Positions 25,192-64,000 of a stretch of 64,000 nucleotides of DNA are shown here, one piece after another. Each line of letters opens with the position of its first letter. The stretch's first letter is position 1. This DNA comes from Candidatus Nealsonbacteria bacterium (lineage in GTDB: Bacteria > Patescibacteriota > Minisyncoccia > Minisyncoccales > UBA6532): assembly GCA_016186485.1 (NCBI GenBank), contig JACPLN010000001.1:18377-82376 (forward strand), in the 5' to 3' direction. A model generated the notes under the pieces. It did no database searches. It was not told the origin of the DNA and saw nothing but the letters and a program-made list of their open reading frames with translations. A program made the position numbers and the translations under genes.

Positions 25192-25263
25192 GGTGGCTAT
25201 GGTGTAATGGCAGCACAGCGCCCTGTGGAGGCGCTAGAGGCAGTTCAAATCTGCTTAGCCACC
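25192..25263 (+). tRNA. tRNA-His(GTG) with encoded G-1
   Basis: G-1 + GTGGCTA/TAGCCAC + discriminator C, anticodon loop CTGTGGA. Confidence 0.85.
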
Positions 25264-26847
25264 CAAGACTGGATTTTGGGAGTAGATTTTCTCCCAATTC
25301 CGTTCATTCGAGCCATTTTTGAGAGGTTCGAACCGTTGCCGGAGCATTTTGACCTTTTTTGCCGCCCTTTCTATCAGAAGGAGCGGTTTTTCTATTGAAA
25401 TGGAGAGTTTTTGATCTTTCAGAGTGAGGTTCGAACCTAAGGCAGAGAGTATTGCTTTCTTTTCCTCTAAAGTTCCGGTTTCAAATTTCTGCTTCGCATC
25501 ACGAGCAAAATCAAACACTGTTTGTGCTGTCTGAATCCAATTATTCATCCGTCCATCTGTGTCATCTAAGATCTCGTGTAAACGGGCTTTCTCTTGAAGT
25601 AGTAGTTGTTTCTTTGAAAAAAATTCCTCTTCGGTAATTTCGTTTCCTGCTCGCATATCAATTAAAGCATCGATTTTTCTTATACAATTCTCGTAAGCTC
25701 TCTTATTATTTCCGAGGAGCACGTTTCTATTCTTTGCCTCTTGCTTATTTTCCGTCCGTAAGCATTCCATCGCCCATTCGTGGAACTCCGTTGGGATTTC
25801 AATATTTTGAAGCATCCGGGCAATTTGAGTCTCTAAGTCTTTCACCCCAATATATTTTTGAGTGCATTTTGGGTTCCTTCTTTTTGTACAACGGTAATAA
25901 GTATAAAAGTGGACATTCCCGTTTTTCTGCCGTTTTACTTTGTCTTCCGCAGTTATCATGCTGCCACATTCGCCGCACCTAATCATTCCAGTAAAGGCAA
26001 AATTATGGGTTTGTTTTCTCGGTTTAGAAGCATTACCCAAAATTATTTGAGCACGGTCGAACTCATCTTTTGTAATCATTAGATCGTGGTTGCCTTTAGG
26101 ATAAAGAACGCCGGCATAGACAAAGGCCCCGTAATAAAATGGGTCCTTAAAGATGTTATAGAATCTACTTCGCCCCATTTTCTTCCCATTTTTACGCGTT
26201 AGCCTCAATTCTTCTGTTGTATTTTCGTAGAGTTTCTGAATGGAAAAGTTGCCGGTCAGTAATATGTCCCATAGTTTTCTTACCAGATCGAATCGTTCTG
26301 GATCTTTCATAATGTCTTTTCTGCCTTTTTCCTTGAATTTATTATTGAGGTATCCTATAGGAGCCAGTCCTGGAAAGTCGCCTTGCTCGCACTTCCTAAG
26401 AAGTCCTCTCTTCGTATTAGCCCGCAATACCCTAATAAAATCGCTTGCACTCCCAAATTCTACTGCGGTAATCAGATGATTGTCCTCTGAGGTAAAAGAT
26501 CGCGTAGGTGTCTTTATAAATTTTAATAGTCCAGTTTCAAGACGATATTTAATACTCCCTGCGTCTGCCGAGTTTCTAGCAAGACGATCTAGTGCCCAAC
26601 ATAATATTCCATTCACCTTCCCTTCGTCTATAATTTTGAGCATTTCATTAAAGCCTTTCCTCCCAGGAGCTTTAGCTGATTTGGCCTCAGTCTTCGTCTT
26701 AACGATTTGAAGGCCTTCTTGTTCTGCAATCTTTTCCAATTCATCAACTTGCGCAGGAATGCTCAAAATTTGTCTGTCCTCAGACTCACTGGATTTTCGA
26801 GCATAAAGGAAGTATTTAATTTTTTGATTGTTTAATTCTTGGTGCAT
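25255..26847 (-). CDS. large serine recombinase (integrase)
   Basis: resolvase N-domain YARKSSESEDRQ...DRLARN, recombinase domain, zinc ribbon CGECGSMI...YYRC, C-terminal coiled coil; 530 aa. Confidence 0.9.
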   Translation of the reverse strand: MHQELNNQKIKYFLYARKSSESEDRQILSIPAQVDELEKIAEQEGLQIVKTKTEAKSAKAPGRKGFNEMLKIIDEGKVNGILCWALDRLARNSADAGSIKYRLETGLLKFIKTPTRSFTSEDNHLITAVEFGSASDFIRVLRANTKRGLLRKCEQGDFPGLAPIGYLNNKFKEKGRKDIMKDPERFDLVRKLWDILLTGNFSIQKLYENTTEELRLTRKNGKKMGRSRFYNIFKDPFYYGAFVYAGVLYPKGNHDLMITKDEFDRAQIILGNASKPRKQTHNFAFTGMIRCGECGSMITAEDKVKRQKNGNVHFYTYYRCTKRRNPKCTQKYIGVKDLETQIARMLQNIEIPTEFHEWAMECLRTENKQEAKNRNVLLGNNKRAYENCIRKIDALIDMRAGNEITEEEFFSKKQLLLQEKARLHEILDDTDGRMNNWIQTAQTVFDFARDAKQKFETGTLEEKKAILSALGSNLTLKDQKLSISIEKPLLLIERAAKKVKMLRQRFEPLKNGSNERNWEKIYSQNPVLGG

Positions 26848-26936
26848 GGTCTAAAATCGTTGTAAGAACCCTTTTAACCACAACATGCCGCTACCCAGAT
26901 TATAAGTCAAGCAGATAATTCACCTTACTATAGAAT

Positions 26937-27374
26937 TCAAATTTTTCCTTCCTTGATAAGCTTTTTAATTTCGGTTCTCTGGTCATCGGTTAGTTTTAGT
27001 TTGTAAGTTGTTTCCTCTTCGACCTTCCTTCTTTCTTCGGCTCCCCATTTTTGTCTTGCCCGGTTCTTTAAGAAGAAAATAATGGCGGTTAGGTTTCCTT
27101 TTTGAATGGCTTCGTAGAGTTTGCTTTCAACGTATTCGATTTGTTGTTTTTTCTCTTCCTCTATCTGTTTTACAAAATCGGGATACTTTTTCAGCCATTC
27201 ATAATAAGTGTCTCGGTTGATTCCGGTGGATTTGCAAGCGGCTGCGACCGTCCAGTATTTAAGGTATTCTTCAACCCAAATTTGTTGGTTCTCTCTAATG
27301 CGTTTCTCTATCAAAGTTTCGGTTTTTTTGTCGGATTTGTCGGATTTGGTTTTTGGCATTTTAGAGGTAGTCAT
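26937..27374 (-). CDS. HTH protein, terminase-small-subunit-like
   Basis: AACKSTGINRDTYYEWLKKYPDF HTH followed by LTAIIFFLKNRARQKWG; family assignment from memory. Confidence 0.4.
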   Translation of the reverse strand: MTTSKMPKTKSDKSDKKTETLIEKRIRENQQIWVEEYLKYWTVAAACKSTGINRDTYYEWLKKYPDFVKQIEEEKKQQIEYVESKLYEAIQKGNLTAIIFFLKNRARQKWGAEERRKVEEETTYKLKLTDDQRTEIKKLIKEGKI

Positions 27375-27395
27375 GGTCGTCTATGTCCACCAAAG

Positions 27396-27851
27396 TCATG
27401 GAATAGAATTTCTTTTCTTTGTTTTACCGCCTAAGATCGGAATAGGTCTTCCGCCTTTTCTGGTCAGCTCTTGTCTTTCGGCCCAGTCGAGGAAGTACTC
27501 GAACCATAATTTGAAATCCCCAGTTGATCCTTTTCTGATAATTGACTCATAGAATTTCATCATGACGTTTGACGTTCTGTCTTTTCCCCATTCTTTCCAT
27601 TGCTCTTGGATTTCGTCCCAGAAGCCTCGTTTCTTTTTGTAATTAGTTAAAGTATCTTCACCTACTCCGTAAATTTTAGCAAATTCCTTTTGGAATCTAG
27701 GTTCTCTTTCTGGTTCTGGCAAGCTCATCCACTTAATAAACCTATGATAAACATCTGGCCTATGTAGACTTTTCGGATTTTTAGGCAGTTTATTCGGAAA
27801 TCGGGTCCTTTTTTGCGGATTAATCCGCCTTTGTCTTTTAAGAGTAGTCAT
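27396..27851 (-). CDS. HTH protein, paralogous architecture to 26937..27374
   Basis: FAKIYGVGEDTLTNYKKKRGFWDEI HTH; same MTT start and conserved 25-nt upstream leader. Confidence 0.4.
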   Translation of the reverse strand: MTTLKRQRRINPQKRTRFPNKLPKNPKSLHRPDVYHRFIKWMSLPEPEREPRFQKEFAKIYGVGEDTLTNYKKKRGFWDEIQEQWKEWGKDRTSNVMMKFYESIIRKGSTGDFKLWFEYFLDWAERQELTRKGGRPIPILGGKTKKRNSIP

Positions 27852-27933
27852 TGTCGTCTACGGCGCCAAAGTCGTACACAAGGGCAACCACGGCGTTACA
27901 TCCGTCATTTTCTGGTAAGTTATCAATTGTGTA

Positions 27934-28076
27934 GCAAATCTTTGATTTGCCACTATCTTATACTTAATAAGATAGTGATACTTAGTTACCTTAAGTTAGT
28001 ATTGTTAGTAGGCGTATTGCGACCATACCCCAGGCGTATTATGCCTTTACTGGTTAAGTCGTATTGTGACCATACC
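27934..28076. other. repeat-rich non-coding segment: candidate origin/operator array of the element
   Basis: IR GCAAATC-TTT-GATTTGC (27934-27950); IR CACTATCTTA-7 nt-TAAGATAGTG (27951-27977); GTTAGTA x2; 19-nt direct repeat GGCGTATTGCGACCATACC / GTCGTATTGTGACCATACC (28011, 28058). Confidence 0.4.
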
Positions 28077-28471
28077 TAAGGTTTTACTGGAAAAGATTTA
28101 AGAGGCCTATATTCTTTCTTTTGGTTCGACCAATTAGATACGGGCTTCCATTCGGTTCTATCTAAGAGCCAGTAAATGTTACTTCCCCGTCCTTTACTTG
28201 TCCGAGTTCTCATTCGGGCAGAAATTATATTCAATTCTTTTAATCTTTTAACTCCAGTTTTAACTGATGTTTCGCTGATACCCAATTCAGCCGCTAAATG
28301 CCCGATGGAAGGGAAACAGGTTCCATCTTTAGCGTGTCGGCATAAAGCGTGATAAACAACTTGACCCTGCCAGCCGACATACTTCGCATAGCCATTCAGA
28401 AACTCGTTATCAACGTAATAACGGTTTTCTTTTCTTTTATCTCTAACCTTAAATGGTTTATCTTGTTGCAT
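28076..28471 (-). CDS. winged-helix DNA-binding protein (replication-initiator/regulator-like)
   Basis: FPSIGHLAAELGISETSVKTGVKRLKELNIISA wHTH pattern. Confidence 0.5.
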   Translation of the reverse strand: MQQDKPFKVRDKRKENRYYVDNEFLNGYAKYVGWQGQVVYHALCRHAKDGTCFPSIGHLAAELGISETSVKTGVKRLKELNIISARMRTRTSKGRGSNIYWLLDRTEWKPVSNWSNQKKEYRPLKSFPVKP

Positions 28472-28736
28472 CTTTTTGGCGGAGAGTATACCATCGCTTT
28501 TGATTGCGTTTATTAAGCATTTTTATGTTTGATTCAGGTATAATTTCTAAAACACTATCCGTGGCGAGGGTTCTGATGCCTTTTTGAGATTTGCCTTTCT
28601 TCTTTATCGTGAATGGGCAGTACTCCTCTTCTAGCAACCTATCCTTCAAAACCGCCTCCGGATCAATCGGACAGATGTTGATTGAACAATTATCCCATCG
28701 AGGACATCCTTCAAGTTTATTGATTACTTTTTTCAT
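28458..28736 (-). CDS. small Cys-rich hypothetical protein
   Basis: 92 aa, CPRWDNCSINICP...CP; overlaps neighbours on both sides. Confidence 0.4.
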   Translation of the reverse strand: MKKVINKLEGCPRWDNCSINICPIDPEAVLKDRLLEEEYCPFTIKKKGKSQKGIRTLATDSVLEIIPESNIKMLNKRNQKRWYTLRQKDATR

Positions 28737-28902
28737 TTGTATTTTCTGCTTTTTTTATTTGGTCAAAAGAAACCGTGCCATAAATTGTTCGGTATAAATT
28801 CAAAAGCTTAGTTGCTTTAAGCAATGCTTCGTTGTCGTTCAGTTCTTCTCCAAATCTTTCCCGGTATAGCTTCCTAAATTGTTGAATGGCTTCTGGATTC
28901 AT
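28717..28902 (-). CDS. hypothetical protein, first gene of the element operon
   Basis: 61-aa ORF directly after the leader hairpin. Confidence 0.35.
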   Translation of the reverse strand: MNPEAIQQFRKLYRERFGEELNDNEALLKATKLLNLYRTIYGTVSFDQIKKAENTNEKSNQ

Positions 28903-28911
28903 AAAATAAAA

Positions 28912-28964
28912 GGTCCCAAATCTTTACGATTATTCATGTAAATAATCGCAAGTGATTTGGGACC
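28912..28964 (-). terminator. terminator-like leader hairpin (candidate attenuator)
   Basis: GGTCCCAAATC/GATTTGGGACC outer stem with inner CGATTATT/AATAATCG stem; on the minus strand it is followed by TTTTATTTT then the ATG at 28902. Confidence 0.45.
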
Positions 28965-29089
28965 AAATTTTTGATCCACATATTATCTCCTCGCTCTCTT
29001 ACTCTCTCCGGTGTGTAAGATAATCCATGCTTTTAGCATGAAGGAATTTTTCCGCCGCGAGGGCAGTCATTTATTCAATTTTCATTTTC

Positions 29090-29117
29090 ATGATAACAAA
29101 CCAAAGAATTGTGTCAA
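29090..29117 (-). promoter_or_regulatory. promoter of the element operon
   Basis: minus strand TTGACA-16 nt-TATCAT. Confidence 0.5.
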
Positions 29118-29207
29118 GGGATCAAGCTTGTTTTTCTCCCTATCTATGTTATTCTATGGCTAGAAAATTAAACAGCCTAAACCTCGCTTTTGGGGCATGG
29201 CATAAAA

Positions 29208-29304
29208 CCCATCGAAGATAAAGAGCTCCTCGTTCAGAGCACTCTTCGATGGGTCATAGCTCGAAAGGGCTATGGGTGGCGCAAGCCATCGCTGGCGGGG
29301 AGCT
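29208..29304 (+). ncRNA. candidate structured RNA / cis-regulatory leader (unclassified)
   Basis: 11-bp stem 29208-29218/29243-29253; 8-bp hairpin with GAAA loop (29255-29274); 6-bp hairpin with GCAA loop (29275-29290); possible pseudoknot AGCTCC (29224-29229) with GGAGCT (29299-29304). Confidence 0.3.
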
Positions 29305-29340: not shown

Positions 29341-29577
29341 ATGGATCATAAACAATATCAAGAATTACAAAAAATAAGAGAAAAAGGGTTTACAGAAAGA
29401 GAGTTAAACGAAGTTTTGCGGTATCAACACGATTTAGGAATCAAGCACGGCGTCGTGATAATGCTATTTTTCGTAGTTTGCCCTTTAATAGTTATCCTCA
29501 CCGATCTACCCATTTGGGCAGATATCTTAGTCTTTGTCGTCCCATTGATCCCGACAATATTTTGGTTATCAGCTTAA
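29341..29577 (+). CDS. small membrane protein (hypothetical)
   Basis: ORF 29272..29577 trimmed to ATG 29341; two TM helices. Confidence 0.4.
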   Translation: MDHKQYQELQKIREKGFTERELNEVLRYQHDLGIKHGVVIMLFFVVCPLIVILTDLPIWADILVFVVPLIPTIFWLSA

Positions 29578-29596
29578 AACAATTTATTGAATTTTC

Positions 29597-29860
29597 ATGA
29601 AAGAAAAAATTACCTTTAGTGCAATTTTCAAAATAAGCGTCCTGATTGCTTTCTTGGCGATAGCGTTTTCCATCGCTTTTTATTTTGTTTACTTTCTACC
29701 TAGCCAAGCAAGAGTAAAATTAGAACGACAAGAGGGACAATACAAAGCTTGTTTACAGAAGTGTGATGCCGAATACCAATCAGAGGTCTGTAATTTTGAA
29801 TGCAGAGAGAAGTATGCGAAACCTCTTCTCAAGTTTCCTGTACTATTTCCATCAGAATGA
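29597..29860 (+). CDS. small membrane-anchored Cys-rich protein (hypothetical)
   Basis: one TM then CLQKCDAEYQSEVCNFEC. Confidence 0.4.
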   Translation: MKEKITFSAIFKISVLIAFLAIAFSIAFYFVYFLPSQARVKLERQEGQYKACLQKCDAEYQSEVCNFECREKYAKPLLKFPVLFPSE

Positions 29861-30050
29861 GATGACTTATAGTTTACAAATCGTTCGTAGCCGGGCAGTT
29901 TTTGTTTAAGAAATAGTGAGTAGTAAGGTGGGGTATACCCGAAATGTCGAACCCTTGCAATTTTCTTCAAAGCGTTGTAGACTATTGCGTTGCCCAAAGA
30001 CCTTTACTTTTTTTAGTTAAGGCAATAATGGTAGAATAATCAATACTATA

Positions 30051-33000
30051 ATGAGAATAAAAATCACCGTCGTCATTCTCTTAATTGCCATAATTCTTCC
30101 TGTTGCCGTATCTGGTCAGGCAGATTTTAGCTTACCAAAACCAGGGCTAACTCCAGACAGTCCTTTTTATTTTTTTGACACATTAGGAGAAAGATTAAAC
30201 CTCCTGTTAACGTTTTCTCCCGAGAAAAAAGCAGAAAAAGCTATTAGACTTGCTGAAGAGAAATTAGCTGAAGTACGGGTAATGGCAGAAAAGAATAAAA
30301 CCACAGCTTTAGCATCAGCTAATCAGGGCTATCAGAACCTTTTAGAGTTAGCTAATCAAAAAACCCAAGAAGCTAAAGAAAAAGGGAAGGACGTAGAAGA
30401 GCTAGCCATCTTAATAACTGAAAAAACCCTAAAACATCAGGAGGTCTTAATTGAGGTATTTGAAAAGGTACCAGAAGAAGCTAAAACCGCTATCCAAAAT
30501 GCAATTGAGGTCTCTAGGAAAGGTTCGGAAACAGCAGTAGAGGCGGTGAGTGGAACTAAGAAAGAAGAATTATCGCAGAAGATAGAGGAAATGAGAACAA
30601 CAGTTGAGGTGAAAATTAATGCCCTAGAAGGTAGAATAAAAAGCCTTGAAGAAAGATTGGAAGAAAAAGCCACTCAAGCTGAAACAGATGTAGAAAGATT
30701 GAAAAGGGAGGCCGAGACAGCCACGGGAGAAGCAGAAAAAGCTAGACTTTTGGCAGAAGTCGAAAAAGCTAAATTAGAGGCAGAGAAGGCGAGGGCCGAG
30801 ACCGAGAGGGCTAAGGCCGAAGCAGAAAAGCTCAAGAAGGAAATAGAAGAAGCTAAAAATGTAGCCGCAGAAGAAACGGTTCCGCTTTCTATCACTAGCG
30901 TTTCTCCAAATCAGATTTTAAATAATATTGAAAATCCTATAATCATTAATGGCTTTGGTATACAAAAGGGCGCAGAGGTCATTATAGGTAATATAAGTTT
31001 CGGCATCGGAAATGTTATTGATAGTAAAACTATTGTTATAAAAGTTTATCCTGGGGTATTATATCCTGGCAGTTATAATGTCCAGGTTAAGAATCCCGAT
31101 GGTAAAACAGATATTTTACATAGTGTCTTAACGATTGTTAAACCTCAACCATCAACCCCAGCCGTGCTTTCTTCGGAAGAAATAACAGCTAGAGTTTCTC
31201 CAGCAGTAATTCTAATTTGGAACAACATAAAACAAGGTTCTGGTTCTGGAATAATAGTTGATTCATCGGGATATGCCCTAACAAATGAGCACGTCATTAA
31301 TGGAGATACTGTGGTCGATGTAATAACATCGAGTGGTATCGTAACTTCAGCTCAGGTCATCGGTTGGAATGAAGTATATGATTTAGCAGTAATAAAGCTA
31401 AGTGGTAATAATTTTGAATTTGCCTCTTTTGGTAATTCAGACGAGGTCAACCTTGGGGAGGAGGCACTTGCTTTTGGCTACCCCAAAATTTTCTCTTTAG
31501 GAGCAAAAACAATTACCGTTACAAAGGGAATAATATCTGCCAGAAATACCCTAAATGGTCTTCCATATTTTCAAACCGATGCAAGTATCCATCCAGGAAA
31601 TAGTGGTGGTCCACTAGTAAATAAAGACGCTCAAGTGATTGGAATTAATACATATGGCGTAACCATTGAAAGTGCAATAGGTTCAGTCGGTGTAGGTATT
31701 AATTTTTCTCTCGAAATCAATGTTGCCAAATCCATTCTTTCCGACCTAAAAGCTGGAGCAAGGGTTTCAATTACTCCGCCTGTTACAGAAACGATTCCAG
31801 GGCCAACTTCTCCTCCTCCATCACCAGGAATTCTAAGAGTTTCCCTTGCCTCAGATAATCCTTCTTCTCAAACTTTTGTTAAAGGAAGCGTAGCTAGACT
31901 TTTCTCTGCTTTTCAATTCAGCACCGATTCAGCCGAACCAATTAGAGTTACAAAATTAAGATTCAAGATTAACAATGGTAGTGGTACTGCCGCCGATGTT
32001 TCTAATGTTACCCTTTGGGATGGTTCTACTAAAGTTGGAGGTCCAGTCGGTGTAATAGGTAGTTATGCTACTTTTGGAATCAATACAGTTGGCTATGATA
32101 CAGTTGGCCTTTTTGATATTCCAGCCGCCTCTACCAAGACCATTTATGTTAAGGCAGATATTCCTACTGGTGCTACCACAAATAGAACCGTTGATTTTGA
32201 CATTGCTTTAGTTTCTGACACTTGGGCAGATGGCATAGGTTCTAGAAATGACCTACCCTCTGGCAATATAATATTGGTTTCTGGTAACGCTGATACCCAC
32301 AGTATCTCTGCTGGTTCTCTCACCGCTTCGGTTGCTTCCACTCCAGTCGACCAAACCAGAATTATTGGTGAGACGGATATCCCATTCGTTGGTATCGTTT
32401 TCAACGCTGATGTGGCAGAGGACGTTAGAATCACTAGAGTAAAATTAACAGTCAGTTCATCTGGCGAAGCCTCAGCTAGTGATATTTCAAATATTGCTTT
32501 ATACGATGGCGCTACCAGGTTAACTAGTAAAAATAATCTTACAGCAACAGTAAGCGGAGTGCGTCATACAGTAGAATTTGTTAGCTCTGACTTTCTAAAT
32601 TCTCTTGGCATCAATATTACAAAGGGTCAGCAAAAAACCATTACAGTTAAAGCAGATATTCCATCTACCGCTGTTGTAGGCCATAAAATTGCCCTTGGGA
32701 TAAGCTCTAATAACGATATTAGTACTACTGGACTTATTTCAAATTCTCATATTGAAGAAACCCTTGTAGCAACAGGAATAAACTATGACGATACTAATCT
32801 TGCAGCAAATTTATACGAGGTTGAACTCTTGGCTAGCGGCTCTATATCAGTGACTACGGCAAGCGAGATTCCCACTACAAGAATAATAGCTGTTGGCAGT
32901 GAGGGTAGTACTACTTTCGTCAATCTAGGGCTTATCATGGCAAATTTTACCGCCTCTGGGGAGGATATTTACATAAAGCAAATAGTTATTCAAAGAGTAG

Positions 33001-34052
33001 CTGGCTATGGTTCTGATGCCAATTTCGCCTCAATCGGTTTGTGGGATGGTTCAACGCAGCTGGGTTCTGTACAAAGCCTAACTAACGGCTCTACAATTTT
33101 TAATCTTTCAGCAGGTAGCTATTGGAGAATACCTAAGGGCATAACTAAGACCTTGGCCGTTAAAGCGACCTTCAACGGGATTGGTTCTGGTTCGGTTACT
33201 GGAGATACTACTAAATTAATTCTTGCTAGTTTTGATGCTGAAGGAGTTAGTTCAGGAAATGACAATCTTTTTGGAGAAGGAGCGGTCAATATATCTGGAA
33301 ATACCCAAATTCTAAGAAAATCAAAACCGACATTGGCCGCAGCCAGCTTGCCGAGCACGACTTTGACGACTGGTGAGAAAGTGCTTTACCGCTGGACAGT
33401 TTCGGCTGATTCAGCAGGAGCAATCGGCTGGAAGAGAGTCGTATTCAACATCACCGGTACCTTGGCTGGCAACACTATCGGGGCTACAAGCACCGTTACT
33501 ACTGCCACCACCGGAAACACCTACCGTGACGGTGTCTACACTGTCACTTCAGGAACCGGAACCGGTTTGACGAAGTCCATTAACCAGTTCAAGGTTTGGG
33601 ACGTGACCAATAACCAACAGGTCACCGCCATTGCAACTGACGCTAATGGTTATAATTTATCTACTAATAGCGTTGGAGCAATTATCAGAGTTGATTCTGA
33701 CGCTTCAGCCGGCAGCAACGTCATCTTTGTTGCAGAATCAGAGCAGCAAGTGGCAGCCGGGACATCAAGGACTTACGAGTTAAGAGGTAACATTGTGAGA
33801 GCTCCTTCAGCAGGCGATGCGCTTCTGACTAGAATTGCTGACCTAGGCAGTTCTTCTTTAAGTAATAGCTATCCCTCCGTTGCTACGGCTGCTGGCGGAG
33901 ACATTTCATTAGTTGATCCATCTGTTACTATTGGTGCGTCATTTATATGGAGCGACCGCTCGACAACTAACCATTCTGAATCTACTTCTGACTGGATCAA
34001 TGACTATAAAGTCGATGGTCTTCCAGTCGCTACACTCAGCTTAAGTAAATAG
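30051..34052 (+). CDS. giant secreted multidomain protein: helical N-domain, coiled coil, IPT/TIG-like domain, S1C (HtrA/trypsin-type) protease, four ~165-aa beta-rich repeats
   Basis: signal peptide; PGLTPDSPFYFFD helical domain; AEKAKLEAEKARAETERAKAEAEK; triad His 31290-31292 (TNEHV), Asp 31380-31382 (YDLAV), Ser 31602-31604 (GNSGGP); repeats marked by LWDGST/LYDGAT/LWDGST/VWDVTN. Confidence 0.8.
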   Translation: MRIKITVVILLIAIILPVAVSGQADFSLPKPGLTPDSPFYFFDTLGERLNLLLTFSPEKKAEKAIRLAEEKLAEVRVMAEKNKTTALASANQGYQNLLELANQKTQEAKEKGKDVEELAILITEKTLKHQEVLIEVFEKVPEEAKTAIQNAIEVSRKGSETAVEAVSGTKKEELSQKIEEMRTTVEVKINALEGRIKSLEERLEEKATQAETDVERLKREAETATGEAEKARLLAEVEKAKLEAEKARAETERAKAEAEKLKKEIEEAKNVAAEETVPLSITSVSPNQILNNIENPIIINGFGIQKGAEVIIGNISFGIGNVIDSKTIVIKVYPGVLYPGSYNVQVKNPDGKTDILHSVLTIVKPQPSTPAVLSSEEITARVSPAVILIWNNIKQGSGSGIIVDSSGYALTNEHVINGDTVVDVITSSGIVTSAQVIGWNEVYDLAVIKLSGNNFEFASFGNSDEVNLGEEALAFGYPKIFSLGAKTITVTKGIISARNTLNGLPYFQTDASIHPGNSGGPLVNKDAQVIGINTYGVTIESAIGSVGVGINFSLEINVAKSILSDLKAGARVSITPPVTETIPGPTSPPPSPGILRVSLASDNPSSQTFVKGSVARLFSAFQFSTDSAEPIRVTKLRFKINNGSGTAADVSNVTLWDGSTKVGGPVGVIGSYATFGINTVGYDTVGLFDIPAASTKTIYVKADIPTGATTNRTVDFDIALVSDTWADGIGSRNDLPSGNIILVSGNADTHSISAGSLTASVASTPVDQTRIIGETDIPFVGIVFNADVAEDVRITRVKLTVSSSGEASASDISNIALYDGATRLTSKNNLTATVSGVRHTVEFVSSDFLNSLGINITKGQQKTITVKADIPSTAVVGHKIALGISSNNDISTTGLISNSHIEETLVATGINYDDTNLAANLYEVELLASGSISVTTASEIPTTRIIAVGSEGSTTFVNLGLIMANFTASGEDIYIKQIVIQRVAGYGSDANFASIGLWDGSTQLGSVQSLTNGSTIFNLSAGSYWRIPKGITKTLAVKATFNGIGSGSVTGDTTKLILASFDAEGVSSGNDNLFGEGAVNISGNTQILRKSKPTLAAASLPSTTLTTGEKVLYRWTVSADSAGAIGWKRVVFNITGTLAGNTIGATSTVTTATTGNTYRDGVYTVTSGTGTGLTKSINQFKVWDVTNNQQVTAIATDANGYNLSTNSVGAIIRVDSDASAGSNVIFVAESEQQVAAGTSRTYELRGNIVRAPSAGDALLTRIADLGSSSLSNSYPSVATAAGGDISLVDPSVTIGASFIWSDRSTTNHSESTSDWINDYKVDGLPVATLSLSK

Positions 34053-58641: not shown

Positions 58642-61600
58642 ATGCCAAAAAGAATGGAAAAAAAATCAGTGCCAAAGGACAGAGGCCGGCTGAAGCCCGA
58701 TCCGGCCTATGTTTCGCTGGCTGAACTAGCTAAAAACTCCCCCTACTCTCAGGAATACTTAAGCTTATTAGCAAGGCGAGGCAAATTACAGGCAAAAAAA
58801 TTTGGCAGGAATTGGTATGCCGCAAGGGAAGCTCTTGACGGATATTTAGCCCACCAGGGGCTAAATATTGTTTTACCAAAGCATCTTTTTAATGCTTCTT
58901 ACAAAGGGAAGATTACAAAACCATTTGACGCTCTTTCTTTTGAGGGACAAATTAGGAATGGAGAAGTAGAACCGAATGTAATTTTAACCCAATTCGGAGA
59001 TCCCCAAGAGCCGATAGACCTTGGGGGCACAAGAGAAAGGTGGGCAGAAAGAATAAAAGAAAAAGAACAGGTATCAGAACCAGTAAAGCCCGAAGAAAAA
59101 GCTAAAGAAGAGCTAAAATCCGAAGAAATACTCAAAATTGAACCCTATCGGATAAGGACAATGCGTAAAGATATAATGGCTTTAACTGGAGGGGGTGTGC
59201 CTAAAAAAGAATACAAGGCTCAAAAACCAGAAACAACTCCTAAGGTTGTTTCCAAAGAGCCTGTCCGCCCAGAGCAAATACCTCTTCCGATAGGGGGGGC
59301 GGCAAAGAAAATAATTCCAGAAAAAGAGGTTTTGGCCACAGAAAGAAAACAGGCTCCAGAAAAGGAAGAGACGATAAAAGAAATGCCCATAGAAGACAGG
59401 GTTTTGGATAAATTGCTTCAGGCCTTGGAAGCCAGGATTCCTCCCAGGGGGCCTTTTGAGAAATTAGCGCAGATTAATGGAGCGGCAAACCATTATTTCC
59501 GTTCCTCTTTCAAGGTTCTTGCCGTATCTGTTGTTGCTATTGTTGTAATGTTTCTTTTAATAGGAGGAGTGAGCTTTGGCAACGTTGATAAAATGATGCT
59601 CGCCGTCAACAGCTTTTTAAAGGACGCTACCACCCTTCGGGGGCATTTTGCCGGTACTCACGCAAACGAAGTTCTGCTTTTGGATAAAGAAGGCAAAATA
59701 TCAATTTACGGCCACGTTGAAACAAGGGGTCAGCTGCGCTCTTTTGTTGAACAGGGAGTGGCGCCCCTTGTCGTAGATTCCACCACGACTGTTGAAAATT
59801 TGAGCGCCGACTACCTTGATAATTTATCAAGCAAAGATTTTACCTTGGCCTTTGTAACAAAGAACGGAAATATCACCTATGAGGACGTAAAACTTGAGGG
59901 AAACGTAGAGGTGGGGAAAACTCTTGTCGTTAAGGGAGCGGCAAAACTTTTAGATAGCCTTTTTGTCTACGGCACCATAGGGACTTTCGGCGACATTATC
60001 GGAAAGGGAAACCTAACAATCGGCGGCGCGGCAAAGCTTGTTGGCCCTCTTTTGGCTCTTGGCGGCGTTGAAACCAAAGGCGCAAATCTTAATTTGGGTT
60101 CGGGCACAATTTCAACTACAAACAGAAATTTGGTGCAAAATCTCAACGCCGATATGGTGGATTCCATGAATGCCGATGACTTTACACTGGATTTCGTTAC
60201 CTCTAACGGAGCCAATACTTTCAACACTATTTCCGTTTCAGGAATTAATGTCAATAAACACTTGGCTGTATACGGAACCTTTCTATTGGGCGACGAAAGG
60301 CTGGTGGGCGCGGTGGACACGAAATATTGGGATATTAGCGCTACCGGCAACATTAACACCGAGGGGACATTAATCGTTAAGGGAAACTCTACCTTTAGGG
60401 GAGAACCCGGGGCAGCCATAGCTTCAGCCACCTCTTATATCAATCCTTCTTCAGCGCCCTCAAACACAATACTTTTAGGAGTGGCTGTTAACGGTTCAGA
60501 AAAGTTAAGGATAGACGCAGAGGGCGATCTTACTGCCCAGGGTTCAATAACCGCTTCCGGCGCCCTGACAGTCAGCGGGGCCACAACTTTTAACAGCGAC
60601 GTTACCCTGGCTTCTCCGGCAGATTTAATCCTTAACGCCGGCAGCTTAACAGTTAACGCCCTTTCGGCTCCTTCCGGCGTTTCGGCCCAAGCCACCACTA
60701 CCGGCTCTCTGGCTTCGGGCACGTATTATTACGTTGTGACCTCTCTCAACAGCAACGGCGAAACAAGCAGTTCTACCGAAGTTTCAGCGGCAGTAGACGG
60801 CTCCACCACTACGGCGGTAAATATTTCCTGGAGCTCGGTAACGAGCGCCACAAGCTATAGGGTTTACGGCAGAACGCAAGGAGCTCAAGACCGATACTGG
60901 CAAACCACCTCCGCATCTTTTAAAGATACGGGGACTGCGGGAACCGCGGCCGCGGTGCCGTCAAGCAACAGCACCGGAGGATCGGGAACTTTTTACAGCG
61001 GCCTTACGGTTTTGGGCACAACGATTTCCCGCAGCATTGTTCCCCAATCAGCCGCTTTTTACAACCTAGGTTCGCCCGGCCTCTGGTGGGACAATATATA
61101 TGTAAGCGCAATTTTAGCGACCTCAACAGTTTTCCTAGGAAACGCAACCACCACCAATATTTATCCTTCCGCAGATATTTCTTATTTTCTTGGGTCTCCC
61201 AGTTTTCGCTGGGCAAACACATATTCAGTCACCACTACTATCGGAGGCGCGGGAGGCGCAATAACAATAGACAATGACGATATCAGGGCTTCAAGCGGTC
61301 TGACTGTTTCTTCCACCGAAATTATGTTTTCTGCTTCTACGGGCAAGTTGTCAGCCACCTCCTCCCAAGATATTTATTTTGCGACAGCCGGCGCGGAAAG
61401 ATTTAGGATTGGATCCTCCGGCCAGGTTACCATTTCAGGGAACGTTGACGCTACTTCAGGTCTGGATGTGACAGGAGCCAAGCTCACTGCCACCACCACG
61501 GAAATCACCGCCACTGACGCAGCCAACGTTTTGACAATTACCCAAAGGGGTTTGGGAAGAATAGCTCTGGCAACTTCAACTTCTTCAATGACCTCCTCGG

Positions 61601-64000
61601 CTTTCCAGATTACCAACCTTGGATCCGGCAACTCATTTTTGGTTGAAGACGCAGACACAGATGCTTCGCCATTTGTCATTGACGCTTCAGGTAAAGTCGG
61701 CATTGCCTCTTCCACGCCCACAGCCGCCTTAGAGGTAGGAGGGAATATATATACCACAGGAGATATTACCCTTTCTGGGAATCTTTTGCCTTCCACTCCC
61801 AGAAATAAAGATATAGGTTCTGTTGCGGTTGACTGGCAGAATGTTTACGCCCAAAACGTTTATGCAGACAACATTTTGGCCACCACTTCCACTTTAGCCG
61901 GAACCCAGGGAGAAACCTGGACTATAAATACCGATGCTGCGTCCGACGCCACTTCAACCTTAAGGTTTTATCGGGGAACAGATGCTCCCCATGCTTTATT
62001 GGCTTGGGATGCGGGATATGATCGCTTCAGCTTTAACTTCCCATTCTTTGTAAATAACTCCGCCACCTCTACTTTTGCCGGTCCAATAGCCCAAAACTCT
62101 GGAAATATGACAATTGGGTCAGCTATAGGAAACCTCTTATTAAATCCTTATGGCGGTAACGTCGGCATCGGGACGACGACACCCTCTTCTCTGCTTGAGA
62201 TTTGGACGAGCACGGCCGGGATCAACCTTCTGGAAATCGGAACTTCCACGGCAAGCAATCTTTTCGTCGTCGATTCCTCCGGCCGTCTTGTTTTCGGCGG
62301 GGACACCAACCTCTACCGTTCCTCTGCCAACGTTCTCAAGACAGACGACGGATTTATCGCTTTCGCTTCCTCAACGATTGTTGGGGATTTCTCAGCTGGA
62401 GCTAGCGGAGTACCAACGCTTTTCGTTGACGACGGAGGCAACGTCGGCATCGCTTCTTCAACGCCGTCAGCAACCCTTTCCATACAGGGAAACGTAATCA
62501 GTTCAGGAAACTTCACTTTCTACGGTTCCGGAACAAACACATTCTCGGGCCAGATATACTTTATCCGGAGCATCCACCACCACAGGCAGAGCCTACTTCG
62601 GAGAATATATTGGCATAGGAGACAACTCTCCTGATTTTGCCTTGGAAATCGCAGCTTCAACAACCAATGGCTACTTCGCTGTTTCTGGTTATCCGGGAGG
62701 CGACGGAGACAAGTTTGTAATTAACGGTTCAGGCAACGTGGGCATTGCCTCAACCACTCCCTCCACCGCTCTATCGGTCCAGGGAAACATCTGGGGTTCG
62801 GGAGACGTCAGATTCTTTGGAACTTCTGCCACCACTACAATCAGCGGAGGCCTGATAGTCGGCACCAACACTCTCTGGGCTCCGGCAGGAGGCAACATTG
62901 GAATTGGAACCGCTGTTCCAACCTACACCTTAGATGTTTCAGGAACTGGCAGATACGCAACCTCTCTGAATGTGGCAGGAACTGCCACCACAACCGGAAC
63001 TTCGCTGGCTTTTGCAGGACTTGGCACTGTCAGCTCAACTGACAATCTCCTCTTAATGAGTAATCGGAATCTCTCAGTCACTTCCACCAACAACATCTTA
63101 TTCGGCACAGGCATTGCCGGAGCCGAACGTATGAGAATTGATTCTTCAGGCAACGTAGGCATAGGGACATTAGCCCCAGACAATCTGCTTGATATTTCTA
63201 AAGCAAACGGAGGGGCTTTGGCCGCCGACGTCTTCCTCACCATTACCCAGGCTTCAACAACCGCAGCAGCCGACCCTTATCTTGTTTTTGAAATAGGTGA
63301 AGACGCTGCGACCAGAGGCTGGAGGCTGGGAATAGACGACTCCGATTCAGACAGCTTTAAGATAGGAACAGGAGCTTTCAGCTCCAATGATATCTTAACC
63401 CTAGACACTTCAGGCAGGCTGGGTCTTGCAACCTCCACCCCCGTTTCTTTGTTATCCGTTCACGCTTCAACAACCGATTTTGCTATGACCTTGCGTCAAG
63501 CCAATGAAGCCACTTCCGGAGGACTGTTACATATATACAAGCCGGGAACAGATATACTTACGATCTTAAACAATGGCAACGTGGGAATTGCTAGTTCAAC
63601 ACCCGGCGCTGTTTTATCGGTGGGAGGGGACGTTCTTATTGGAAGCGGTTCCACAATATATGCTAAAAACCTGAGACCCGTGGCTGACAACGCAGGCAGC
63701 TTGGGTTCTTCCAGTTTGCGTTATCAGTCTGTTGAACTTGATACGGTTACCGGTTTAAGGCTTTGGAATTCTGCGGGAGACGCCAACGCCTTGGCTCAAC
63801 TGACAGGAACTAGCCTGAACTTTGGAGCAGGCGGAGGCACGGCCCTAGACACCAACCTCTACCGCTCCTCTGCCAACGTTCTCAAGACCGACGACGGATT
63901 TATCGCTTTCGCTTCCTCAACGATTGTTGGAGATTTCTCAGCTGGAGCTAGCGGAGTCCCCACGCTTTTCGTTGACGACGGAGGCAACGTCGGCATCGCT
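58642..64000 (+). CDS. giant membrane-anchored surface protein with tail-fibre-like repeats; frame changes by +1 near 62560 and the gene runs off the window
   Basis: ORF 58642..62634 (1330 aa): N-terminal HTH-like domain, Lys/Glu/Pro-rich linker, TM (VLAVSVVAIVVMFLLIGGVSF), then repeats GNVGIASSTPxxxL. Frame +1 is open from 62498 to the window end and carries the same repeats. Confidence 0.75.
62302..62454 (+). repeat. 153-nt intragenic direct repeat, copy 1
   Basis: 5 mismatches to 63848-64000. Confidence 0.9.
63848..64000 (+). repeat. 153-nt intragenic direct repeat, copy 2 (truncated by the window end)
   Basis: offset 1546 nt from copy 1. Confidence 0.9.

Follow-up and report, generated by a model that had tools for sequence, protein, structure and literature searches.

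A compact element that is integrated at a tRNA-His 3' end was identified within a 64,000-nucleotide stretch of contig JACPLN010000001.1 (positions 18,377 to 82,376; the whole stretch is referred to here as the window). The source is a metagenome-assembled genome (MAG) named Candidatus Nealsonbacteria, which bears out the candidate phyla radiation (CPR) host claimed in an earlier reading of the DNA (hereafter the sequence-only reading) and in which the genes of the element are annotated as hypothetical. Comparative sequence analysis makes a strong case that this is a real integrated element, which probably originated from temperate phages of CPR bacteria and measures an estimated 4–5 kb. We consider it possible, with chances approaching but not reaching even, that it represents a miniature phage-derived integrative element using its own small terminase subunit (TerS) to enter the capsids of a helper phage; the associated satellite behaviour, i.e. 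helper dependence, excision and packaging, is a plausible prediction. More doubtful is the wider proposal that it belongs to the first phage-satellite family of CPR bacteria (Patescibacteria). Such a family would consist of 4–5 kb elements, derived from temperate CPR phages, that keep only a serine integrase, TerS, an origin-binding domain and a regulatory unit beginning with the orphan LOOT RNA. The large clade to which their integrases belong, unlike classical serine integrases, would recognise the T-arm and target the final nucleotides of tRNA or transfer-messenger RNA (tmRNA) genes, jointly t(m)RNA genes, with attP lying over the integrase's own stop codon. No report of a CPR phage satellite was found in the literature searched.

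The locus comprises the following features, in window coordinates:
25192..25264, + strand: tRNA-His(gtg) including G-1, the integration target, whose last ~6–10 nt are the integrase stop region and would form attL
25255..26847, – strand: large serine recombinase (integrase), 530 aa (Pfam and PHROG)
26937..27374, – strand: TerS homologue, 145 aa (PF13022, phrog_309)
27396..27851, – strand: helix-turn-helix (HTH) protein, 151 aa, with remote TerS similarity
27852..28075, no strand: non-coding DNA with iteron-like repeats, a palindrome and AT-rich DNA (repeat search)
28076..28471, – strand: winged-helix protein, 131 aa (HTH_36, PHROG replication initiators)
28458..28736, – strand: small four-cysteine protein, 92 aa, accompanying Rep (replication initiator) and TerS genes
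28717..28902, – strand: p61, 61 aa, first gene of the integrase operon and constant partner of the integrase clade
28903..29173, no strand: divergent control region (promoter scan, inverted repeat I5)
29174..29290, + strand: LOOT RNA (Rfam RF03000, 92.7 bits)
29341..29860, + strand: two small membrane-protein genes, 78 aa and 87 aa (open reading frames, hydrophobic segments)
29883..29906, + strand: terminator-like hairpin and T-run after the 87-aa gene (terminator scan)

As described in the sequence-only reading, the 530-aa integrase open reading frame (ORF) ends within the tRNA-His acceptor stem, its TAA stop codon (25255–25257) lying in the acceptor 3' strand, and is followed by five small, tightly spaced and co-oriented genes encoding proteins of 145, 151, 131, 92 and 61 aa. 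The overlap of the integrase and tRNA genes amounts to 10 nt if the tRNA is delimited by ARAGORN (25193–25264, + strand) or 9 nt if delimited by Rfam (25193–25263, 58.1 bits), with G-1 at 25192. All ORFs of the element are intact and separated by short intergenic gaps (89 nt between the TerS and integrase genes), and GC skew is negative over 25–29 kb, the surrounding sequence being positive. The reported lack of a capsid, portal or large terminase subunit (TerL) gene in the element was confirmed by ORF and family scans and by comparison with 38 related viral contigs. This comparison detected no TerL-like sequence in the whole 64-kb window, in which proteins of these contigs were resembled only by the products of the integrase, 145-aa and 151-aa genes. 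Furthermore, no defence gene was identified in the element using PADLOC, and no virion or defence function was detected among the genes flanking it.

The 530-aa protein is, judging by its domain content, a bona fide large serine recombinase, for which recombination activity is predicted. It was shown to contain Resolvase (PF00239, 5.4e-17, residues 13–156) and Zn_ribbon_recom (PF13408, 4.5e-12) domains, together with a Recombinase domain (PF07508) at 21.3 bits (cut-off 21.1), and it matches the integrase family phrog_95 at 6.5e-59 over residues 5–488. Within its N-terminal Y-A-R-K-S-S motif, R17 and S19 were invariant in an alignment of 35 homologues. Homologues numbered 4662 at E<=1e-20, and the comparison set comprised 82 non-redundant loci (39–60% identity), 69 of which were assessable for overlap with an RNA gene. 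An overlap was scored if a tRNA or tmRNA gene lay antisense to the integrase gene, with its 3' end <=15 nt from the end of the conserved part of the integrase. The proposed integration at a tRNA 3' end was borne out by this comparison, as the arrangement was observed in 41 of the 69 assessable relatives, with tRNA-Asn (14), His (11), Gln (4) and Ser (3) and tmRNA (3) as targets, and Thr, Ala, Tyr, Gly, Arg and Met each represented once. In all overlapping relatives the integrase ORF reads into the RNA gene up to a chance stop codon, and the overlap, as gauged across these loci, is far beyond chance. One subgroup is positioned antisense to tmRNA 3' ends (L108, 9321–9707; also L086 and L110; labels of the L001 type denote integrase-relative loci or viral contigs compared in the present analysis). 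According to Mageeney et al. 2020 (PMC7192596), serine integrases had not previously been reported to target t(m)RNA genes and do so rarely, in 14 of 297 cases. No description of a clade of t(m)RNA-targeting serine integrases was found in the literature searched.

The attachment sites could be approached through integrase loci that lack a tRNA gene and carry instead a conserved arm with a T-loop-like GGTTCGAAC motif. Two such loci could be paired with integrated counterparts: L053 was matched to L049 (76% identical at the nucleotide level) and L068 to L067 (83%). In both pairs homology was shown to end 6–8 nt inside the tRNA-His 3' end. The GGTTCNNA T-loop-like motif stands 13 and 16 nt from the shared core in the tRNA-less forms, compared with 8 and 11 nt, respectively, in their integrated counterparts. 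A 5-bp shift of the zinc-ribbon-domain motif distinguishes the attP of serine integrases from attB. As the motif is shifted outward by exactly 5 bp, the tRNA-less forms are taken to represent attP; the offset was observed in the pairs of relatives, not in the window element itself. We read the putative attB as the T-arm together with the acceptor 3' strand, attP as overlapping the integrase stop region, and the crossover as occurring within the last ~6–8 nt of the tRNA, which would leave the tRNA intact and duplicate almost nothing. The P' half of the att site would then lie in the last integrase codons, with the stop codon in tRNA sequence. A crossover at this position would account for a window without a displaced tRNA fragment or flanking repeat, and would imply that integration swaps the C-terminal tail of the integrase. 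In agreement with the sequence-only reading, repeat searches of the window revealed no long direct repeat at the far end, while the best matches to a displaced tRNA fragment or an inverted repeat at that end were no better than those of shuffles (p ~0.25 and 0.77). A hairpin, CCCAAGAC TGGAT TTTGGG followed by a T-rich run, extends over 25262–25280 from the tRNA-His 3' end, within the integrase coding tail, and could represent the terminator of the tRNA transcript or a part of attL.

The right boundary differs from that given in the sequence-only reading, since position 29117 marks the –35 box of the promoter-like site ahead of the leftward operon. Because the LOOT RNA is tied to elements and not to the host site (see below), the right end is probably located near 29.9 kb, corresponding to an element of ~4.7 kb, and the best guess for attR lies between the hairpin at 29883–29906 and position 30050. 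T-loop-like motifs were noted at 29883–29889 (+ strand) and 29946–29954 (– strand), but they offer no single consistent att geometry.

The claim that the element contains two TerS-like genes stands for the 145-aa protein, which passes the PF13022 threshold and has homologues in the TerS slot, but only in a diminished form for the 151-aa protein, whose similarity is remote and sub-threshold. The 145-aa protein scored 30.5 bits against PF13022 (cut-off 27.9) and matched the PHROG TerS families phrog_309 (2.4e-13) and phrog_4102 (2e-8) as well as Sf6_terminase (1.3e-4), in addition to weak matches to HTH, transposase-type and excisionase domains. Its homologues (27–43% identity) are encoded directly upstream of a gene for a protein of ~500 aa in ~25 IMG/VR contigs with related serine integrases, and share with it a C-terminal ..TAIIF(F/W)LK.. 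motif located outside the HTH. Among three contigs scanned, the ~500-aa product contained Terminase_6N and Terminase_6C above cut-offs in L148, Terminase_6C just under the cut-off in L126 and GpA_ATPase in L131. Two further homologues (38% and 44%) are located upstream of TerL and an SPP1-type portal gene, and TerL and portal genes follow homologues in L157–L160. Because these homologues occupy the slot upstream of TerL or portal genes, the 145-aa protein is identified as a genuine TerS homologue, the matter being settled by genomic context. In the window the 145-aa gene is not adjacent to TerL, and the absence of TerL is as expected for the TerS of a satellite. An AlphaFold2 (AF2) monomer of the protein was predicted to be all-helical (predicted local distance difference test score 76.6), and sequence searches of the PDB with TerS and the winged-helix protein yielded nothing useful.

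The 151-aa protein exhibits the same layout as TerS and has a homologue of 36% identity in viral contig L119. The 145-aa and 151-aa genes moreover share a 25-nt start context with 84% identity (TAGACGAC-N-ATGACTAC on the coding strand; 27359–27383 and 27836–27860), which points either to an ancient duplication in tandem or to a translational or regulatory signal common to both genes, the proteins themselves being barely alignable.

The closest homologue of the 145-aa protein (50% identity) is encoded by L156, a second mini-element without TerL, in which a small ORF, a four-cysteine protein (55% identical to that of the window), an O-like initiator (phrog_9773, 8.8e-23), TerS and a serine integrase follow one another. 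This operon does not include p61, and its integrase is a different one, being only 24% identical to that of the window; nevertheless, it is accompanied by a divergent LOOT RNA followed by a small transmembrane protein, the same layout as in the window. The clearest full-size relative, on gene content, is the IMG/VR contig L166, which combines a p61-like gene, a winged-helix-like gene (41%), an integrase (39%, full length), a ParB-methylase, TerS, TerL and a LOOT RNA. In the window, TerS is located between the Rep and integrase genes, an order that is therefore not derivable from an L166-type prophage by a single deletion. In the related phages, fusions of ParB with N6/N4 methylases adjoin TerS.

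With regard to replication, the previous description of a Rep-like winged-helix protein was upheld by its HTH_36 (1.1e-11) and PHROG replication-initiator (1e-7 to 1e-10) matches, but these extend to an N-terminal DNA-binding domain only. The 131-aa protein aligns to residues ~1–128 of homologues of 164–270 aa (phage O-like or DnaD-like initiators). As Rep comprises only this domain, autonomous replication is doubtful. No remnant of a Rep C-terminal domain was detected in the adjacent repeat-rich non-coding stretch (224 nt, 27852–28075), whose previously noted repeats were confirmed: it harbours three 19-nt iteron-like copies at 28010, 28032 and 28057 (span 28010–28075) and a perfect 11-bp palindrome at 27951–27977, and may represent an origin, a pac site or an operator region. 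The element thus carries the winged-helix domain and the iteron and palindrome repeats without a primase or helicase, the same operon slot in relatives being filled by a DnaG zinc finger plus large proteins, a Toprim-DUF5906 primase-helicase or a longer winged-helix protein. The 92-aa protein, with four invariant cysteines, belongs to a very small family (44 representative clusters), and its confident AF2 model matched none of the solved folds.

The most constant companion of the integrase clade is p61, homologues of which are encoded upstream of the integrase gene and on the same strand in 51 of the 82 non-redundant relatives, adjacent to it in 22 cases. Searches against Pfam and PHROG returned no family match for p61. 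Because it co-varies with the integrase, being replaced in L156, p61 is the best candidate for a recombination directionality factor or a regulator of the integrase gene. No match to a repressor, AlpA or antirepressor family was obtained in the element.

A LOOT RNA, overlooked in the sequence-only reading, was detected opposite the integrase operon with a full-length match (1–121) of 92.7 bits, compared with a gathering score of 46.4, and of 103.8 bits with a model built in the present analysis. It is, by these scores, a bona fide RF03000 RNA, divergent from the integrase operon and probably part of the element. In the intervening region the leftward operon is preceded by a strong promoter-like site (– strand; TTGACA, 16 nt, TG-TATCAT; 29117 to 29090; 11/12 consensus matches), past which LOOT starts at a distance of 57 nt. 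The region also contains leader hairpins at 28901–28975 and 29024–29042 and room for a rightward promoter; these signals are consensus matches only. LOOT was also observed beside ~10 other integrase relatives, in different tRNAs or tmRNA, usually where the integrase operon meets oppositely oriented genes. In total, it was located in the window, L040, L043, L051, L064, L070, L076, L092, L105, L108, L128, L156, L166, L171 and L173, of which the viral contigs L128, L166, L171 and L173 carry it adjoining ParB-methylase, TerS and TerL genes; it was absent from control loci and from the rest of the window. Its recurrence in varied targets, in L156 and in viral contigs ties LOOT to the elements and not to the host site.

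Copies of LOOT are generally located just upstream of an ORF on the same strand, at 5–61 nt in most cases, and 13 of 17 downstream ORFs (16 first ORFs and the 87-aa second ORF) start with a transmembrane or signal segment, which suggests that CPR phages and elements derived from them carry LOOT as a leader or regulatory RNA. In the window, the RNA is followed by two genes likewise overlooked in the sequence-only reading, the 78-aa protein gene (29341–29577; two transmembrane segments) and the 87-aa protein gene (29597–29860; one transmembrane segment and a cysteine-rich tail), whose products are probable cargo of the element. Large secreted proteins of the DUF5667/trypsin-like type are encoded downstream of LOOT both in the window (30051–34052, 1333 aa) and in L043 (1271–4228), at different tRNA targets; the 1333-aa protein is only 28% identical to that of L043, and therefore provides no evidence for co-transfer.

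Taken as a satellite, the element would operate from its divergent control region, which would drive a leftward unit (p61, the four-cysteine protein, the winged-helix origin-binding domain, the iteron and palindrome region, the 151-aa HTH protein, TerS and the integrase) and a rightward unit (LOOT RNA followed by the two small membrane proteins). Upon infection by, or induction of, a related helper phage, the integrase and a directionality factor, for which p61 is a candidate, would excise the element, and the replication proteins of the helper or the host would copy it from the iteron region. This dependence is proposed because its own initiator consists of a DNA-binding domain only. Its own TerS would then mark element DNA for the large terminase of the helper, and concatemers of the element would be packaged in helper capsids. 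In this respect it would operate in the manner of a PICI or PICMI satellite or of a PICI-like tycheposon (all described below).

Several observations weigh against this satellite reading. No helper phage for the host was identified, TerS-bearing mini-elements were seen only two or three times, and at 4–5 kb, with a putative right boundary, the element is smaller than any well-studied satellite. Exact look-ups of the flanking fructose-1,6-bisphosphatase (FBPase) and of the 78-aa protein revealed no empty site and returned only three same-strain contigs, all occupied and 100% identical to the window. An exact look-up of the 87-aa protein gave no record, and the FBPase/tRNA-His synteny was absent among FBPase relatives in GTDB genomes. 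Likewise, no excised circle of the element was found, and circular contigs were absent among the integrase relatives. The initiator C-terminal half present in all relatives is missing from the 131-aa protein, and the majority of integrase relatives encode primase or helicase modules and no packaging gene. The top fold matches of the 145-aa AF2 model (2ao9 and the PaP3 and NV1 small terminases) were non-significant (E 0.4–3.4). The matches of the 151-aa protein to PF13022 (E=0.0034) and the TerS family phrog_24579 (E=0.0016) were sub-threshold, and its comparison with the 145-aa protein yielded a BLASTP E-value of 0.31 and an hhalign P of 0.003 at a probability of 10%. Finally, the match of the TerS-like gene of L005 to the Terminase_2 profile is limited to its first ~40 positions, which could reflect decay.

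In an alternative that we regard as distinctly less than probable, the element is a cryptic integrative replicon of a widespread CPR family, composed of p61, a replication module and a serine integrase, which moves by transformation or another route and in which the TerS-like HTH proteins act as regulators or directionality factors. Most relatives indeed consist of p61, a primase, helicase or winged-helix module and the integrase, without a packaging gene. PF13022 is an HTH family, and the additional HTH, transposase-type and excisionase hits of the 145-aa protein, the non-significant TerS fold matches and the lack of a known helper fit this explanation. It is, however, countered by the location of 145-aa homologues in the canonical TerS slot by TerL or portal genes, or in L156, by the conserved C-terminal motif falling outside the HTH, and by the truncated initiator, which speaks against autonomous plasmid-like replication.

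That same truncation suits an improbable third explanation, in which deletions took the TerL, structural and lysis genes of a temperate CPR phage and stranded its integrase-proximal genes as an immobile, defective prophage. Counterparts of the integrase, TerS, the 151-aa HTH protein, the winged-helix protein, p61 and LOOT all occur in related phage contigs, the shortened TerS-like match in L005 offers a parallel, and the element is identical in all three same-strain contigs. Conversely, the locus exhibits no pseudogenes or frameshifts, its gaps are short, including the 89 nt between TerS and the integrase gene, and the window retains no TerL-like sequence, while the minimal architecture is repeated in L156 with a different integrase. 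As the ORFs are intact and compact, the architecture recurs and the gene order is not the product of one deletion from an L166-type prophage, a selected minimal design is favoured over decay. That there is no element, and that ordinary host genes merely converge on tRNA-His in a compact genome, is very hard to credit: gene overlaps are common in CPR genomes and no empty site was found, but the integrase-tRNA arrangement recurs over varied tRNA species and tmRNA in unrelated contexts, attP forms display the 5-bp offset of serine integrases, the gene content is phage-related, and strand and skew are reversed.

Further observations concern the relatives of the integrase. A 'partial tRNA-Asn' beside some integrases was considered as attP and rejected, since these loci share the same host genes as fully integrated loci, and they were called as tRNA-Asn by ARAGORN with the intron option. 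In L039, L048, L063, L064, L065, L071 and L074, the tRNA-Asn gene downstream of the integrase gene carries a conserved insert, ..GATGATATAGTCCAC.., that splits it past the anticodon loop. Group I introns in tRNA-Asn have been reported for Patescibacteria (PMC13011429), and the interrupted genes, which standard tRNA scans miss, fit such intron-bearing tRNA-Asn genes. Two serine integrases of the same superfamily were located close together in L050, L056, L068, L078 and L111. The two genes converge in L068, diverge in L111 and occur at adjacent tRNAs in L050 and L056, a pattern suggestive of elements that are nested or arrayed in tandem at tRNA clusters. Just beyond the far side of the elements in L007/L008 (5108–7683), L156 (333–3076) and L040 (3042–5111), genes for restriction-modification systems or DNA methylases were observed. 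Elsewhere in the window, positions 60001–64000 exhibit a GC content of up to 0.48–0.51, compared with ~0.41 in the remainder, and a negative GC skew; no rRNA or other Rfam family was detected there.

Few descriptions exist of mobile elements in CPR bacteria, and a mini-element with TerS as its only packaging gene would, if true, extend satellite parasitism to ultra-small, host-dependent bacteria. A large serine-integrase clade with short, predictable targets in universally conserved t(m)RNA 3' ends is attractive for genome engineering, and the orphan LOOT RNA gains a context, as it stands at the head of genes for membrane or secreted proteins in CPR phages and elements derived from them. All of the evidence is comparative, and its value lies in directly testable ideas.

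Compared with known systems, the element resembles phage-inducible chromosomal islands (PICIs), including the Staphylococcus aureus pathogenicity islands (SaPIs), in that its integrase gene is terminal, that a divergent control region and a candidate replication-origin module are present, and that it encodes its own TerS. It also resembles them in lacking TerL, capsid, tail and lysis genes, and in its predicted redirection of a helper packaging motor. However, PICIs measure ~10–15 kb and encode tyrosine integrases, an Stl-like repressor or AlpA, a full primase-replicase and capsid-remodelling genes, whereas the window element is 4–5 kb in size, encodes a large serine integrase and no recognisable repressor, AlpA or primase, and resides in a CPR host. 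It is therefore not classed as a PICI, several features of PICI membership being absent from it. Closer in size are the PICMIs, which Barcia-Cruz et al. are said to have described in 2024 as phage-inducible chromosomal minimalist islands of marine Vibrionaceae. These are likewise very small (about 6 kb), with a minimal gene set and no capsid-remodelling genes, and are presumed to enter helper capsids as multimers. PICMIs are characterised by tyrosine integrase and primase genes, and TerS is not known to be among their defining features; furthermore, they occur in another host phylum and show no sequence relationship to the window element.

The tycheposons of Prochlorococcus, compared here by description only, are similarly compact, integrated at tRNA genes of a streamlined genome and equipped with replication modules, and include a PICI-like subset with TerS or a capsid gene. 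In contrast to the window element, they are cyanobacterial, usually larger, cargo-carrying and overwhelmingly associated with a tyrosine recombinase, a large serine recombinase being present in 27 of 937 (Hackl et al.; 10.1101/2020.12.28.424599). Prophages of the phiC31, Bxb1, A118 and TP901-1 types share with the element the resolvase, recombinase and zinc-ribbon domains, the lack of a long att repeat and, as seen in its relatives, the 5-bp half-site spacing, and a small directionality factor is expected in such serine-integrase systems. The classical examples target protein-coding genes, whereas the clade described here targets t(m)RNA 3' ends, with attP over the integrase stop codon. Gene content is also shared with the uncultivated IMG/VR temperate phage contigs of the L166, L126 and L148 types, which carry homologues of the integrase, p61, the winged-helix protein, TerS and the 151-aa HTH protein, together with LOOT. 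Unlike the window element, these contigs also encode a ParB-methylase, TerL and, if long enough, many more genes, and they are probable ancestors or helpers of the element.

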